A stretch of DNA of 37,716 bases from a virus (lineage: Duplodnaviria > Heunggongvirae > Uroviricota > Caudoviricetes). The position numbers were made by a program, and so were the translations under genes. Location: the IMG/VR virus record IMGVR_UViG_643692022_000005; one strand, written 5' to 3'. Shown in pieces: positions 1,979-7,153 of the stretch. Positions within the stretch are counted from its first letter, which is position 1; each line of letters begins with the position of its first letter. The notes below the pieces were generated by a model, which had not been told where the DNA came from, did not search any database, and was given only the letters and a program-made list of their open reading frames with translations.

Positions 1979-2340
1979 TATGCTCCAGCCTCCGGTGCTT
2001 TTGGCATTACTGCCCAGTGAGTGATATTGACGTTTTCAAGGTCCCCGACCTGAAATGTCCACTGCCATTCTCCGGTTTCTTTTTGTCCCCAGGTGTACCA
2101 GAGAGAACGCCAGCCAATTAGCCAGCCTTCTCCGTTAGCATCGAATAACAAAACACTTTCATTTGCTGGTGGCAGTTCAGTTGACACTGGTATTACTTTG
2201 TTTTCCTGTGCTGCACATTTAGCTTCAAGCGCATCGAATTTACGCACTAGGTATTCAGCATCTGTTTCATTTACTTTCAGATCTCGCGGTACACATCTCC
2301 CACGAAGAAACCCTTCCATTTCGAAAACATTCATGCGCAT
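1978..2340 (-). CDS. DUF551-like phage protein
   Basis: 120-aa ORF with a Trp-rich C-terminal half ending ...NITHWAVMPKAPE, which resembles the DUF551 family from memory. Confidence 0.6.
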   Translation of the reverse strand: MRMNVFEMEGFLRGRCVPRDLKVNETDAEYLVRKFDALEAKCAAQENKVIPVSTELPPANESVLLFDANGEGWLIGWRSLWYTWGQKETGEWQWTFQVGDLENVNITHWAVMPKAPEAGA

Positions 2341-2867
2341 TTGCGTAACTCCGATAACTCGTTAAAGCGTTCCATAAACATCCCGTAGGCATGGCCCGGA
2401 GCCAGTGGAATCACGTTGAACATCTCTGTTGCCGGGATACCTTCCAGTACAGGCCAGAAAGAGCCATCATCAAGCCCGAGATCGCGGCGTTCGGTTGCCA
2501 GCATGATGAGATCGGCATATTTCACGGGCGTACTCATAACTGGGGGTAACCCGTATTTCTCACGGATTACGGCGTCTATTTTTTCTTCCATTTGTTTATA
2601 GTCAGGAAGAAGGCGTTTCAGTGGTGCGGGAATGTCCTGGCAATACGCTTCTGTTGCATCATGCATTAACGCTTCAAAAGCAAATTCCTGCGGCACCAGC
2701 TGGCTGCAAAGAACCGCATGTTGGGCGACGCTGTAGAAGTGCGAAAGATGACCGGCAAAGCGACAGATATTTGAAAGGGAAACCGCGATATCGTTAATAT
2801 CGATGTCGTCTTTATTTATCCTGTCATAATAAAAATGCTTCCCGGAAAAAGTTTTAATAAATGACAT
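2331..2867 (-). CDS. HD-domain phosphohydrolase (YfdR-like 5-prime-deoxynucleotidase)
   Basis: HD-type motifs (H...HD...E: SVAQHAVLCSQL, MHDATEAY). Start placed at the internal ATG (MSFIKTF) preceded by GGAG at 6-nt spacing; the track ORF runs to 2894 from a GTG. Confidence 0.75.
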   Translation of the reverse strand: MSFIKTFSGKHFYYDRINKDDIDINDIAVSLSNICRFAGHLSHFYSVAQHAVLCSQLVPQEFAFEALMHDATEAYCQDIPAPLKRLLPDYKQMEEKIDAVIREKYGLPPVMSTPVKYADLIMLATERRDLGLDDGSFWPVLEGIPATEMFNVIPLAPGHAYGMFMERFNELSELRKCA

Positions 2868-2994
2868 TTTGCTCTCCACGTATATGCGCTGCACCGCGCT
2901 GAATTCTGGTAAAAAGAATCCCTCACCATCCGGCGATTATTGAGTAAATTACGTTTCCATAAATGCCCCCGCAGGGGCATTTGCAGTAATGAAA

Positions 2995-3819
2995 TCAGGC
3001 GGTGAAAGTACCAATAAAGGTTTCTACTTTGCTGTCCTTGAATTTCTCAACAAGCAGATCACGAAATTCGTTAGCCATTTCTTCCTGCACCGCCTCCAGC
3101 TGAATAATGCGCAGAACCAGTACAGGACGATCGCCAGTGATAATACTGAGGCGTAATTTAAACGGACGTTCTTTCAGACCTTCAAACGGAACGCATTTAA
3201 ATTCAAATGTCACTGGCATAATGTCTTTGGTCTTCGCTTCGACAGACTCCATCAGGGAGCGTTTGCCGCTGAAGTCATTATCTTCAAAATCAGCGGTCTG
3301 GTTTGCTTCAATCGTGATTTTACGGACAGCCGCAGCCGCTTTTGTTGCCTGAATAGCGTCACCATTAGCATCAAAGCCCACAAGATAGTCGGCCCAGTCT
3401 TCAATCCATTCTGCCAGTGACTTCTGGGAGTTACGCTCGCCGTTAACAGACAACAGAGCAGAGAACGGTGCTGTCTTTTTCAGTTTGAGTGTGGCGGTGT
3501 TATCTGCGTGACCTGGTTCATCAATAGTACCCAGGTTAAGCACACTGACGGCACGCATATTATCAGCATCGATAAAGCAGCGGGTGCCTTCATCTGCAAG
3601 ATCTTTAGAATAACGGGTAAAGTCATCGATGCTGGCAGTGGAAAGCGCACCACGGAAACGGAAGCGATTTAAATTAAATTTTTCCAGATCATGAATGCGG
3701 AAATTCTCAGGCAATGCCACAGCATCGGCACCAATCTTACTGATAATTTCATTAACACCCTGAGCAGAAATAAGGGCATGGATTTGATTAATTGCGGTTG
3801 CGTCTAAGTTCTGAGACAT
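2995..3819 (-). CDS. YfdQ-like (DUF2303-like) phage protein
   Basis: 274-aa ORF; family assignment recalled from the E. coli CPS-53 prophage, where it sits next to an HD-domain gene as it does here. Confidence 0.6.
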
Positions 3820-3884
3820 AATAAGTCCTCACTATATAAAGATATTCAGTGATGAGATAAATAATCAGTTAATTAAAAACGATA

Positions 3885-4247
3885 TTAACGACCTGCTGCG
3901 CGGAGTTTTCCGTCAGGTTCACCGGCAAGAGTCAGTAACTGTCCCTGGTCTTCCTGCAGAATAGTCAGGCGACCACCGCGATTGACATACATCGGCGTTT
4001 CGGTGGTGTCTTCTTCGGAAATTTTCCCGCGGTTAGTCGGGCGAACATATGAGAGTTTGTGTTTGATTTTCACTCGGTTCTCATCAAACGGTTCGATTTC
4101 CAGGTTGAGCGAGACCTTACCTTTGGTTTTCGTGTTCATCACACCGGAAGCGACTTCACTGAGAACTGCGCCGATTTTGGTTTCAAATACGCCGCCGTCC
4201 AGCTCCCCGATAAATGCCTGCACATCAGTACTGCGTTCGCTAGCCAT
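3885..4247 (-). CDS. Hypothetical phage early protein
   Basis: Start at the internal Met (MASERSTDVQAFIGELDGG) preceded by GAGGAG at 9-nt spacing. The longer track ORF (to 4565) runs through a structured non-coding region and is not credible as coding. Confidence 0.65.
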   Translation of the reverse strand: MASERSTDVQAFIGELDGGVFETKIGAVLSEVASGVMNTKTKGKVSLNLEIEPFDENRVKIKHKLSYVRPTNRGKISEEDTTETPMYVNRGGRLTILQEDQGQLLTLAGEPDGKLRAAGR

Positions 4248-4295
4248 TTTGCTGCTCCTCATCATATCGACCCTGCAAGGTCGGTTAGTTTCTCC

Positions 4296-4384
4296 ACAAA
4301 ACAGAGAAGAACACCTGCGGTGACTGCCGCCCGGATGGATTGGGTTATGAGCCCGTCGTCCGGTGATGCTCTTCTCTGTTTTGT
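4296..4384. repeat. Long perfect inverted repeat (15-bp arms, 59-nt spacer) forming a large stem-loop
   Basis: 4296-4310 ACAAAACAGAGAAGA pairs perfectly with 4370-4384 TCTTCTCTGTTTTGT. By my estimate a 15-bp inverted repeat within 100 nt is expected about 0.003 times by chance in a window this size. Confidence 0.7.
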
Positions 4385-4648
4385 AAAAAGGACGGTACCA
4401 GCCGGAAGCAAGGGTACAAACTGGTACCGCCAGGACTACACACAGCATAAAGTTGTGGTGCCGGGTGCCTCCCGGTGCCTGGCGAAGGTTGCACACCAGA
4501 CGGGTGGGTATCCACAGAAGGTCGACTGTCAGCCTCAACCTTAACCCGCGTGCGCTGAGCCGCATTCACCACAACGCTAAGAATTCTCTCTGGTTGAAAA
4601 TACTTAGCTGTTATGTGCCTGCTTTTAGCCACATCAGGCGAGGTGGAC

Positions 4649-4700
4649 CTGGTTATTCCCCAACAACAAGGATTCGGTTAATCTGGTTATCCCCAACAAC
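4649..4700 (+). repeat. Two direct repeats (CTGGTTAT(T)CCCCAACAAC) upstream of the 4716 gene
   Basis: Copies at 4649-4667 and 4683-4700 differ by one inserted T; the second ends 15 bp before the ATG. Each contains a TTATCCCCA-like core one or two mismatches from a DnaA-box consensus. Confidence 0.6.
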
Positions 4701-4715
4701 GCAAAAGGAAAAGAA

Positions 4716-5150
4716 ATGTCCGGTAATATCTATACGCTGTACAAATCCCACTGTGAAAATGTTGGAAAGTATCGGGGCATTGAAATCAGTGGGGTAGTGT
4801 CATCAGTCGAAATAAGCAAAGTTGAATCAAGGGCAACATTACTTACTCTTCTGGACCTTGTCTTACATGAGCACCGGAAGAAATTCGGCACTCCCTATAA
4901 TCAGTTGAATGGGAAAAAGGCTCTGGTTCACCTTATTCTGATGAAGCATCACTGGATGCCAAAACAGATTAATGAGATGAAATTTGATGAACTTCTTCTT
5001 TCAATTCAGGATGAACTCACACTTGATAAAATAAGCGTAACCGCCCAGAAATTTTTAGATTATCGAGACTGGAGATCACAAATTCATCACTTTGATGATT
5101 TTGACGAAAATGAATGGGATCCTAATTTGTCTGCACAATATCTAAAGTAA
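4716..5150 (+). CDS. Hypothetical protein (AT-rich cargo gene)
   Basis: 144-aa ORF in AT-rich DNA, where a long ORF is unlikely by chance; purine-rich RBS-like stretch (AAAAGGAAAAG) upstream. No recognised motif. Opposite strand to the flanking early operon. Confidence 0.6.
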   Translation: MSGNIYTLYKSHCENVGKYRGIEISGVVSSVEISKVESRATLLTLLDLVLHEHRKKFGTPYNQLNGKKALVHLILMKHHWMPKQINEMKFDELLLSIQDELTLDKISVTAQKFLDYRDWRSQIHHFDDFDENEWDPNLSAQYLK

Positions 5151-5328
5151 CATCCTGTGATAAAACCGTGATTTCCTGATCCAGTTTTTTTAAGGAGTCT
5201 ATTGTTTCCTGTCGATAAGACAGCACTTCACGAAGCTGGTTTATAGCTGCCAGCTTCTTTGCCATCCACTCGTAAATTTCCTCATTTGTGTATCCGGGCG
5301 CGACGATTTTTGGTTCTGTTTTGTGCAT
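5122..5328 (-). CDS. Small hypothetical protein (68 aa, predicted helical/coiled-coil)
   Basis: Internal ATG (MHKTEPKIV) preceded by a strong RBS GAGGAGGTG at 5-nt spacing. Converges on and overlaps the 3-prime end of the 4716-5150 gene by 29 nt. Confidence 0.5.
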   Translation of the reverse strand: MHKTEPKIVAPGYTNEEIYEWMAKKLAAINQLREVLSYRQETIDSLKKLDQEITVLSQDVTLDIVQTN

Positions 5329-5373
5329 TTCACACCTCCTCAAGTTATCAGTTACTTGTTGATGGGGACCAGA

Positions 5374-5385
5374 TTGTTAAAGAGC
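5374..5385 (-). promoter_or_regulatory. boxA-like antitermination element (GCTCTTTAACAA on the minus strand)
   Basis: Exact 12-mer match to the core of the rrn/lambdoid boxA consensus as I recall it (TGCTCTTTAACAA), in the orientation of a leftward early transcript and directly after a hairpin. Confidence 0.4.
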
Positions 5386-5387
5386 TA

Positions 5388-5410
5388 AGCGTCCTGTAGG
5401 GCGCTTTTTT
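5388..5410 (+). terminator. Rho-independent terminator (plus-strand reading)
   Basis: Stem AGCGTCC/GGGCGCT (7 bp, one G-U) with loop TGTA, followed by TTTTTT. On the minus strand the same hairpin precedes the boxA-like element instead. Confidence 0.55.
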
Positions 5411-5593
5411 GTTGCTAACGAATCATCCTGGACTTCATATGCCCCAGGCGGCTACTTCGTGGGCGTCCTGCCTGTTCGTTGTTTTAACATCTTTAAGTTG
5501 TAATTCAGTTGTGGTTTTGAATGTTGTCAACAACTTTATGTGGTTTGAACGAGTAGCCAAGGAGTGCAAGGATTATCAAAAAAAGGAGGTTGT
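5411..5593. promoter_or_regulatory. Divergent promoter/operator-like region (candidate leftward early promoter and rightward cargo promoter)
   Basis: Perfect TTGACA -35 hexamer on the minus strand (top 5525-5530) with a weak -10 about 17 bp downstream; clustered GTTGT/ACAAC motifs like those in the cI-cro intergenic region; AGGAGG RBS at 5583-5588. Confidence 0.4.
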
Positions 5594-6484
5594 ATGGAAG
5601 ACGCGCTTTACGCTTTTAATTACACACAGAACCGGGACAAGTTATTTGCTAACTTGATTAGCATCATTGATGGAATCATTGCAGATGGAGTTGTCCGTGA
5701 AGAGGAGGTTCTTTACTTAGATACATGGTTACTTGAAGCAAAGCAGATTATCAATAATGGAGTTATAAAAAGTCTATCAGCACGGGTGTCGGATATTCTT
5801 GCGGATGGAATAATCACATCAGAAGAACGTGATGACCTTAAAAATAGCCTTCTCCAAATACAGAGGGAAATTCTTGATATCCCTGAAATTGATTTTTACT
5901 CCAAGGATGTAGATGTCCATTTACTTAATGGACTATGTAAAGGATTAATTGCTGATCGGAACTTAACTCAAGAAGAAATAAGATATCTTAATTGGTGGCT
6001 TGAGCAAAATGGAGCTTTGAAGAACAACTACCCAGGAAAAAAACTTTATGCACTTGTAAAGGAAATTCTTAAAGATGGGGTTATTACTGAAGATGAGAGT
6101 TTAACTCTACATAAGGCATTAGTAGACTTCACAGGATGTGACTTGGAAAGTGGGGTGGTGGATGGTTTGGCGACCAGGCTGCCTATTGATGTAGGGGCTT
6201 CGATAGAGTTAGAGGGTAAAACCTATTGTCTTACAGGCACTTTTGTTGCAGGAAAGAGAGCCGTAGTTGAAAATTTGATTAAAAATGCTGGTGGGAACAT
6301 CAGTAGTGGAATTACTCAAAAGTTGGATTTTTTAGTAATTGGGACGCTTTCCTCCCGTGATTGGAAATTCTCAAGTCACGGAAGGAAGATCGAAAAAGCT
6401 ATATCTTATAGGGATGATAATGGTGCAAAACTTAAAATTATTTCTGAAGAAATGCTTTTCGATGCATTACCAAGTTCGCGATGA
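5594..6484 (+). CDS. Protein with four TerB-like helical repeats and a C-terminal BRCT-like domain (candidate defence/exclusion gene)
   Basis: Start at the ATG preceded by AGGAGG (the track ORF begins 30 nt earlier). Four repeats of a D-G-[VI]-[VI]-x-x-E-E helical motif; C-terminus GKTYCLTGTF...AGGNISSGITQKLDFLVIG matches the BRCT pattern of NAD-dependent ligases. AT-rich; 3-prime end overlaps the cI 3-prime end. Confidence 0.75.
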   Translation: MEDALYAFNYTQNRDKLFANLISIIDGIIADGVVREEEVLYLDTWLLEAKQIINNGVIKSLSARVSDILADGIITSEERDDLKNSLLQIQREILDIPEIDFYSKDVDVHLLNGLCKGLIADRNLTQEEIRYLNWWLEQNGALKNNYPGKKLYALVKEILKDGVITEDESLTLHKALVDFTGCDLESGVVDGLATRLPIDVGASIELEGKTYCLTGTFVAGKRAVVENLIKNAGGNISSGITQKLDFLVIGTLSSRDWKFSSHGRKIEKAISYRDDNGAKLKIISEEMLFDALPSSR

Positions 6485-7153
6485 CCAGAATACCCTACCT
6501 ATAACATGAATTCTGGCTCGTCTATCTTCAAAGGTGAGTATTTCATCTGGGTACTCATCTTTGTTGAAGCTTCTAAGAATCAAGCCACCGTCAGGTAAGT
6601 TGATAAGTATTTTAACCCTTAGCAATACACCATCTCGTACGGCATAAAGATCGCCATCACGAATAGGAACGGTTTGAGAAATATCAACGGCAACAAGATC
6701 TCCATTATTGAGAACCGGTAATAAACTGTTCCCCCATATTTTTACGATCTTGGCATTAGATGCACATACGCCAGATTTTCTCAAATCTGCTCTTCTTAAC
6801 GGAAACCAGTCAATAGCTGATTCAACTATTTCAGCCAGACATCCGTTACCTGCCGATAACTCGACATCTAAAACAGGAATGTTTACGAAAATATCGGGGT
6901 CTAATGCGGTGCTTTCTGCTTCTTTTACAACAAGATCAGGTATGGATGCGTTGTCTTCAATACCAAGTTGTAACCACTTTTGTGATACACCTAAAACTTT
7001 TGCAATTTCTTTAATTTTGCGCGGTTGTAGAGTTTCGCCATTCTCTATTTTGGCTACAGATTGTTGTGAAAGTCCAATTTTTTCAGCTAGTTGAGCTTGG
7101 CTCATGCCAGCTATCTCTCTACCTATCTTTAATCGTTCTGCCAGTGTTTTCAC
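6467..7153 (-). CDS. cI: CI-like repressor (HTH plus S24 LexA-like peptidase domain)
   Basis: N-terminal HTH (MSQAQLAEKIGLSQQSVAKIENGET) and a C-terminal S24-like autoproteolysis domain (GNSLLPVLNNGDLVAVD...); divergent from a Cro-like gene; GTG start. Confidence 0.88.
   Translation of the reverse strand: MKTLAERLKIGREIAGMSQAQLAEKIGLSQQSVAKIENGETLQPRKIKEIAKVLGVSQKWLQLGIEDNASIPDLVVKEAESTALDPDIFVNIPVLDVELSAGNGCLAEIVESAIDWFPLRRADLRKSGVCASNAKIVKIWGNSLLPVLNNGDLVAVDISQTVPIRDGDLYAVRDGVLLRVKILINLPDGGLILRSFNKDEYPDEILTFEDRRARIHVIGRVFWSSRTW

Follow-up and report, generated by a model that had tools for sequence, protein, structure and literature searches.

Organisation of the locus

We analysed a 37,716-nucleotide (nt) stretch of viral DNA (the window; IMG/VR record IMGVR_UViG_643692022_000005), an SfV/SfIV/ST64B-type lambdoid prophage beside a tRNA gene; the sole tRNA of the window called by ARAGORN lies at 191-264. 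The genes yfdR, yfdQ and yfdP are on the minus strand. In L001, a prophage whose genome is 99.6% identical, PGAP places the start of yfdP at the position that corresponds to the window ATG at 4247. The ECs1072-family gene is divergent, with its ATG at 4716, and a CI-like repressor gene occupies 6467-7153. The elements found between yfdP and the ECs1072-family gene, at 4250-4640, share the sense strand of yfdP. Our data indicated that this stretch is probably composite, with a minus-strand small RNA (sRNA) gene and a structured leader at the head of the leftward early operon. The original prediction, made from the sequence of the window, had described it as GC-rich, highly structured non-coding DNA with a perfect inverted repeat, either a structured RNA (an sRNA, a long 5' untranslated region (5'UTR) or a processing site) or a protein-binding DNA element. 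The RNA alternative agrees with the organisation described here, in which an sRNA gene is combined with a structured 5' leader. The minus-strand orientation, the intrinsic terminator, the matches to named RNAs and the fact that the inverted repeat belongs to an element separate from the sRNA had been missed. The features are as follows, in the direction of transcription.

4610-4640, minus strand: conserved upstream block CCUGAUGUGGCUAAAAGCAGGCACAUAAC, which may be a promoter or the 5' leader of the RNA
4576-4608, minus strand: P0 hairpin (inverted repeat I3; arms 4596-4608/4576-4588), directly 5' of the acceptor-like helix
4452-4575, minus strand: STnc100-type tRNA-like core, with P1 (4575-4567/4460-4452; the acceptor-like closing helix of 7-9 bp) and P2 (4564-4551)
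4542-4536 with 4491-4485, minus strand: core pseudoknot, AAGGUUG pairing with CAACCUU
4501-4494/4484-4477 and 4475-4471/4465-4461, minus strand: P4 of the core and its invariant hairpin P5
4432-4451, minus strand: single-stranded linker of 20 nt, putative seed, unpaired in the centroid fold
4385-4431, minus strand: intrinsic terminator, stem 4431-4421/4401-4391 (including a 9-bp stem) and U-tract 4389-4385
4285-4392, minus strand: three-way-junction leader of the early-left operon, about 108 nt, main stem 4384-4360/4320-4296, starting at the terminator U-tract
4245-4283, minus strand: small hairpin (4283-4268), Shine-Dalgarno (SD) sequence GAGGAG (4260-4255) and yfdP start codon (4247-4245), read from the sequence
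3885-4247, minus strand: yfdP (phrog_204, function unknown), first gene of the leftward early operon (yfdP-yfdQ-yfdR...xis-int), served by the leader

The stretch 4250-4640 is non-coding

The GC content of the stretch (0.55, against 0.38-0.50 in the flanks) confirmed its GC-rich composition. The original prediction also saw no credible open reading frame (ORF). ORFs of 95-226 amino acids (aa) do cross the region, which runs counter to that statement; in support of it, indels of 1 nt and 20 nt separate the window from phage ST64B and break the frames. Since the indels break the frames and the ORFs found at the homologous place differ in ST64B and in Cronobacter phage phiES15, we conclude that the region is non-coding. 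None of the records inspected had a non-coding RNA annotated at this locus. One of them, L001, carries a frameshifted PGAP 'hypothetical protein' pseudogene over the RNA elements (4023-4333, corresponding to window 4262-4572), probably a mis-annotation propagated through E. coli genomes. The existence of open frames, the frameshifted PGAP coding sequence and the hypothetical proteins annotated in several phage records are what would favour a small protein, such as the product of the 95-aa ORF at 4345-4632 or a YfdP with a longer N terminus. Both indels relative to ST64B, the lack of the same ORFs in ST64B and phiES15 and the compensatory nature of the stem substitutions make such a protein scarcely credible. 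A retron had been argued against because no reverse transcriptase lies nearby. This was borne out by the seven genes at 2334-7153, which encode YfdR, YfdQ, YfdP, an ECs1072-family protein, phrog_1744, a BRCT-domain protein and the CI-like repressor, with no reverse transcriptase domain among them.

A probable minus-strand sRNA gene is related to STnc100

The sRNA gene extends from about 4577 (or 4605) to 4385 on the minus strand and would yield an RNA of about 190-225 nt. Both sequence reading and folding placed an intrinsic terminator with UCCUUUUU at its 3' end. The 9-bp stem originally reported at 4393-4401/4421-4429 is present within this terminator. The accompanying statement that none of the stems has a U-tract applies to the plus strand only; read as minus strand, the sequence runs from the 4391-4431 hairpin into CUUUUU (4390-4385). 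The terminator stem is kept through different sequences in the homologous copies of ST64B and phiES15.

The original prediction matched the region to no named family, which no longer stands in view of an Rfam match to STnc100, the published RNA sRNA-17 and a DicF-type architecture. STnc100 occurs as a multi-copy sRNA in Salmonella and E. coli prophages and is related to PasD. The Rfam scan that had been suggested aligned the full-length STnc100 model (RF02076) with 4605-4383 on the minus strand at 41.9 bits, below the gathering score of 47 (E = 1.1e-7 in a local scan, 6.3e-6 over the whole window); the leader had no Rfam match. The STnc100 5' box GUGGUGAAU is present together with its closing helix to CACCAC, in which 4575-4567 pair with 4460-4452, and the stem 4431-4391 followed by CUUUUU matches the 3' intrinsic terminator of the model. 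The invariant hairpin of the family, a 22-mer (CACCGGGAGGCACCCGGCACCA) found in more than 120 viral contigs with little else in common, occurs exactly at 4478-4457. A hairpin originally placed at 4463-4477 is indeed present, its CCGGG/CCCGG arms lying two bases away at 4461-4475.

Covariation was analysed in 24 diverse members of the family. Five of the nine P1 pairs were changed on both sides, and no shuffle among 500 scored as high. When P1 and P5 were taken together, 92% of positions were paired and 6 of 14 pairs were altered on both sides (again 0/500 shuffles as high). Across 36 sequence clusters, a common architecture consists of P1 (GUGGUG/CACCAC, with the covarying forms AUGGUG/CACCAU and GUGAUG/CAUCAC), a P2 hairpin, P4 whose loop is pseudoknotted to the region after P2, and P5 abutting the 3' strand of P1; the window copy carries these features, with a P2 hairpin of another sequence and register. 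The pseudoknot, which joins the post-P2 region to the loop of the hairpin before P5, was defined in this analysis and is absent from the Rfam structure. Of 38 family representatives, 34 have a complement of 6 bp or more, with varied sequences (AAGGCUGG/UCAGCCUU in phiES15; an 11-bp pairing in contig L096). The window element resembles STnc100 in its 5' box, closing helix, pseudoknotted middle, invariant hairpin, linker and intrinsic terminator. Unlike STnc100, in which P2 is CCCCCUnnGCGGnGGGG, the window has the hairpin UGCG-GCUCAG-CGCA, with another sequence and register (non-canonical pairs are flagged there by cmscan), and its linker carries a seed identical to part of RprA. The genomic setting also differs: the window copy is upstream of yfdP in the early-left operon, whereas canonical STnc100 is found in late-region tRNA arrays or downstream of stx. 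We regard the sRNA portion as a variant form among prophage sRNAs already known, one that joins the STnc100, sRNA-17 and DicF architectures.

The linker carries a putative RprA-type seed

Bases 4447-4434 of the linker (UGCUGUGUGUAGUC) are identical to nt 62-75 of RprA, a core Rcs-regulated sRNA; in phiES15 the identity to RprA reaches 23 of 24 bases. This 14-mer forms a perfect 13-bp duplex with the csgD 5'UTR (-98 to -86) at -22.3 kcal/mol, compared with -11.9 ± 2.4 kcal/mol for shuffled sequences, none of which was as low in 1000. The best duplex of RprA nt 56-80 occupies the same csgD site (-24.6 kcal/mol, 15 bp). The 14 bases lie beside the terminator, and complementarity to the csgD 5'UTR is common to the two RNAs. 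The window gene differs from RprA in that the 5' half, including the rpoS-pairing part, is absent, and in that it is prophage-borne with another promoter context. The window linker paired with the rpoS leader no better than shuffled sequences did, and the RprA model (RF00034) had no match here at E values up to 10, the 14-nt seed alone being common.

The 14-mer was present in 60 of 80 viral loci anchored on yfdP. Another 19, of the sRNA-17 type, instead carried GCCACUGCUUU, the first 11 nt of RybB. From this distribution, the linker behaves as an exchangeable seed cassette, and the RybB-like version, judged from its sequence, suggests seed swapping between prophage and core sRNAs.

sRNA-17 occupies the same position in mEp460-type prophages

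sRNA-17 of E. coli K1 strain RS218 is a 193-nt RNA of an mEp460-type prophage, mapped by rapid amplification of cDNA ends, detected by Northern blot and reported to be under ArcA control (PMC7719688). Using the published primers (PMC7719688), we placed it in phage mEp460, where it begins with CGUUGUGGUGAAUGCG (16 nt) directly upstream of the same inverted repeat/leader and yfdP. The window element and sRNA-17 have the slot, 5' end, closing helix and terminator in common, and DNA identity is 96-98% over window 4240-4432. Similarity stops at 4432: the window body between the strands of the closing helix is unrelated, so that identity does not extend over the 193-nt body, and the linker is the RybB-type sequence in sRNA-17 and the RprA 14-mer in the window.

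Replacement of sRNA-17 by a cat cassette raised yfdP about 95-fold, and yfdR was raised too (PMC7719688). The primer design implies that cat was oriented toward yfdP, and with this orientation the yfdP rise is probably cis read-through. The replacement shows, in this relative of the window, that the terminator region keeps yfdP silent in the lysogen.

A conserved three-way-junction leader precedes the early-left operon

The 15-bp perfect inverted repeat reported by the original prediction (4296-4310/4370-4384) was found, and with 84% complementarity it can be lengthened to 25 nt (4296-4320/4360-4384). It forms, on the minus strand, the main stem of the leader, extended onto the terminator U-tract. 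The loop GGCUCAUAACCCAAUC and the tail GUGGAGAAACUAACC of the leader are invariant. A small hairpin, the SD sequence and the yfdP ATG follow it; this hairpin, which the original prediction placed correctly at 4268-4283, and the SD sequence are kept in the cross-genus leader alignment. The minimum free energy of 4240-4392 was -62.4 kcal/mol (z = -5.6), and none of 200 shuffles folded as well.

The leader is kept upstream of yfdP in 12 genera besides Escherichia and Salmonella, including Mangrovibacter, Enterobacter, Atlantibacter, Leclercia, Superficieibacter, Phytobacter, Kosakonia, Scandinavium and Pseudocitrobacter. The comparative alignment advised originally revealed compensatory changes in its stems: 97.3% of cells were paired, against 44-60% in slid controls, and 11 of 37 pairs were changed on both sides (5.0 ± 1.4 in shuffles; 0/500 as high). 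A covariance model of the leader scored 118.7 bits on the minus strand and 30.1 bits on the plus strand; this asymmetry and the conserved U.G pairs indicate that the structure is a minus-strand RNA. The same observations disfavour the protein-binding DNA alternative of the original prediction. It is very improbable that the inverted repeats act as DNA (as operator, cruciform or recombination site). Long, perfect arms and the mosaic breakpoints clustering nearby, at 4397, 4432 and 4447, would suit such a site; however, the four conserved U.G pairs would turn into C.A mismatches if the opposite strand were read, the model favours one strand, and protein-binding sites do not typically have arms separated by 39-59 bp.

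Searches with nhmmer identified 124 strong same-strand copies of the leader, all at operon heads. Of these, 116 preceded yfdP, and the other eight preceded yfdR, xis or an rdgC-like gene, yfdP being deleted there. This distribution points to a leader of the operon head and not to a yfdP-specific operator. Autoregulation by YfdP, which we considered for the leader, is weakened by the same eight copies.

The most interesting rival is that the leader or the core is a cis-acting RNA antiterminator like put of phage HK022, binding RNA polymerase and allowing it to read through the terminators of the long early-left operon in these lambdoid phages, which apparently lack N. put is likewise a structured nascent RNA at the head of early operons in a lambdoid phage apparently without N, and a position at the operon head with a complex conserved junction and invariant loops would suit such a role. 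The authors of the phage LLS genome, who found no N homologue, speculated on a put-like RNA in LLS (PMC12315714), whose early-left operon is closest to that of ST64B. Against this, HK022 contains nothing similar by sequence or covariance model, and no second leader copy was detected with the covariance model in the window, L001, ST64B, mEp460 or SfV, including their rightward operons, whereas put is present downstream of both early promoters in HK022. put is also a two-stem RNA of about 74 nt and the leader a three-way junction of another fold, which furthermore lies after a terminator and not before one. Put-like antitermination lacks support here, and we consider it unlikely.

The sRNA slot is modular and can hold a tRNA

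In 47 yfdP loci of other species a recurring order was found: the upstream block (..GUGGCUAAAAGCAGGCACAUAAC), the P0 hairpin, a variable body enclosed by a helix (GUUGUGGNG...CNCCACAAC), the linker, the terminator and the leader. The upstream block is kept before otherwise differing RNA bodies in phiES15, Klebsiella phages, Mangrovibacter, Atlantibacter and Kosakonia, and the P0 position is taken by hairpins of other sequence in other genera. The body is STnc100-like in E. coli, Salmonella, Cronobacter and Buttiauxella, sRNA-17-like in others and absent in one Kosakonia locus. True tRNAs occupied the core slot in Phytobacter (tRNA-Ile(AAU) called by ARAGORN; 52.8 bits with the Rfam tRNA model) and in Yersinia, where the tRNA has a long insertion (40.3 bits). 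In these loci (L224 1223-1296, L230 1186-1264 and L248 1169-1296) the acceptor stem of the tRNA is the closing helix of the family.

In the core itself, seven P1 pairs are well conserved and stack on the 5-bp P5, which gives it the size of a tRNA acceptor/T minihelix, and this geometry may serve processing by RNase P or RNase E. As in a tRNA, the 7-bp closing helix directly abuts the 5-bp hairpin stem; in contrast to a tRNA, the window loop has 5 nt and not 7, and there is neither an anticodon arm nor a CCA end. The window core was not called as a tRNA by ARAGORN or by the Rfam model RF00005. In 51 of 120 viral contigs, canonical STnc100 lay no more than 1.5 kb from co-oriented Met/Arg tRNA genes; these tRNAs all shared its strand, and tandem arrays occurred in some contigs. 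Examples beside tRNA-Arg are L102 (copies at 457, 710 and 963) and L094 (four copies), with a spacing of about 253 nt and their own terminators.

The dicB operon of the K-12 prophage Qin, which encodes DicF (Rfam RF00039), has the same layout: a CAUAAC block related to 4610-4640, a P0-position hairpin of another sequence, and a domain closed by GGUUGUGGC/GCUGCAAC precede DicF, which itself corresponds to the seed/linker and terminator (GGCGGUAUCAG...) within the immunity-proximal early operon. The seed and the upstream body of the window are different. The DicF model scored 15.7 bits here (E = 1.2; gathering score 48), compared with 76.7 bits for the K-12 control, and the window seed is not the ftsZ-pairing one. 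Qin also contains an STnc100-like core (L257 2433-2642; 34.4 bits, below gathering) that forms a dicB leader, with the dicF terminator before it and the dicB start codon after it. This core is unannotated in K-12 and shows a compensatory change in P5 (CCUGG/CCAGG). In Qin the core follows dicF, whereas in the window it precedes the seed and terminator. A further arrangement was seen in Buttiauxella (L214 1318-1500), where an STnc100-like core is joined directly to the tail GUGGAGAACUAACC and the yfdP ribosome-binding site, with neither terminator nor long stem; this layout implies that the role of the invariant tail is independent of pairing with the U-tract.

A discrete sRNA or a long leader

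We also weighed the view that no independent sRNA is made, 4250-4640 being one long structured 5'UTR of yfdP with its terminator working as an attenuator that is passed during lytic growth. DicF in K-12 comes from an operon transcript, no local promoter was found, and STnc100-like cores abut the downstream gene in Buttiauxella (with no terminator) and, likewise, dicB in K-12. On the other hand, Northern blots show sRNA-17, whose ends are the same, as a separate RNA of 193 nt, enterohaemorrhagic E. coli makes discrete RNAs from its STnc100 copies (with a Northern blot of STnc100_4), and a conserved single-stranded seed beside a terminator is the typical layout of an sRNA. The two views are not exclusive; as a replacement for the sRNA, the long 5'UTR seems unlikely.

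Several observations weigh against our preferred reading of an sRNA gene followed by a leader. The original description of the region as highly structured was correct for 4240-4392, but by folding energy it failed for the sRNA body (4383-4577; z = -1.5), which was not significant on either strand. Support for the body comes from homology and covariation, not from folding energy, and the STnc100 score is below the gathering score. A sigma-70 promoter scan near 4600-4660 returned no consensus. A sigma-54-like TGGC-N9-GGC spacing would put +1 at 4605; SfV-type relatives, however, carry a 1-nt insertion at this place. Because no promoter was identified, processing of a longer leftward (PL-type) transcript may be the sole source of the sRNA. 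The case for a discrete RNA is made by analogy with relatives (the Northern blots of STnc100_4 and sRNA-17), and the published increase in yfdP could reflect read-through from the cassette and not loss of regulation. Finally, the leader lies downstream of the terminator and hence cannot control it.

Proposed function of the sRNA and the leader

With an sRNA gene followed by a leader, we infer a trans function for the first and a cis function for the second. Most transcripts would stop at 4385-4390 to give the sRNA, whose mature 5' end would be a processing product at the base of the acceptor-like helix (about 4575-4577), where that of sRNA-17 was mapped. DicF is reportedly made by termination together with RNase E and RNase III processing. 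By analogy with DicF and RprA, a shorter species made of the seed and terminator may be released, and this RprA-like species, with Hfq, could act on RprA-type targets such as the csgD 5'UTR, as its sequence suggests. In cis, the terminator would insulate yfdP-yfdQ-yfdR from upstream transcription in the lysogen. Transcripts that read through would fold into the leader, with the inverted repeat as its helix of about 25-30 bp, ahead of the ribosome-binding site of the operon's first gene. The leader would most likely be a determinant of processing, stability or translation, and an RNase III-type target is the leading candidate by analogy with the lambda N leader and DicF maturation.

We tentatively extend this model, with less confidence than the composite organisation itself. 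The STnc100-type core might be a tRNA mimic (a 7-bp acceptor-like helix on a 5-bp T-like stem), interchangeable with real tRNAs and placed before a swappable seed cassette. RNase P on the 5' side and RNase E on the trailer might then release a short sRNA with the seed of a core envelope-stress sRNA (RprA here, RybB in the mEp460 type, DicF in Qin), plugging the prophage into host regulons such as csgD/curli. The adjacent leader might represent a new class of cis-regulatory RNA for early-left operons of lambdoid phages apparently without N.

If these proposals hold, a very common prophage sRNA with an RprA seed could repress the biofilm regulator csgD and link prophage carriage to curli and biofilm phenotypes. 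STnc100, PasD, sRNA-17 and DicF would be modules of one architecture (P0, tRNA-like domain, seed, terminator), which would explain their association with phage tRNA arrays, and the leader would be a concrete candidate for the early-operon control of LLS/ST64B/SfV-type phages. Literature searches on STnc100, on yfdP with sRNA, on the 14-mer and on the 22-mer returned no description of the RprA seed, the tRNA-like relationship or the leader motif, the leader sequence itself not having been searched.

Distribution and neighbouring features

A 481-bp query was matched in 2781 of 5426 complete E. coli genomes (about half), the match spanning most of the query in 1608, and in 74 phage records. Similarity to other loci breaks at 4397, 4432, 4447, 4646 and 4700, which indicates that the region is a mosaic of modules. 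SfV-type loci (L018, near 1521) retain a trace of a past module exchange: some 650 nt upstream of the intact element there is a truncated sRNA-17-type body, reduced to its 5' half and fused with a small ORF. The K-12 yfdO/yfdP spacer, which contains SrsR sites, was examined as a counterpart and discarded: its sequence differs and the SD region alone is common. YfdP had no match among solved structures.

Just upstream of the ECs1072-family gene, window 4642-4667 and 4676-4700 form two direct repeats with CUGGUUAUYCCCCAACAAC, which may be a regulatory site or part of the leader of that gene; the segment 4642-4700 is common to Klebsiella phages. The plus-strand gene at 5564-6484 encodes a BRCT-domain protein of 296-306 aa (PF00533; phrog_3989) between the repressor and the early-left region, with its 3' end overlapping the repressor gene. 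It is missing from the otherwise near-identical prophage L001 and so looks like an inserted moron. In the early-right region of ST64B (L002 5232-5308), a match to the sRNA isrK scored 64.3 bits, above the gathering score.

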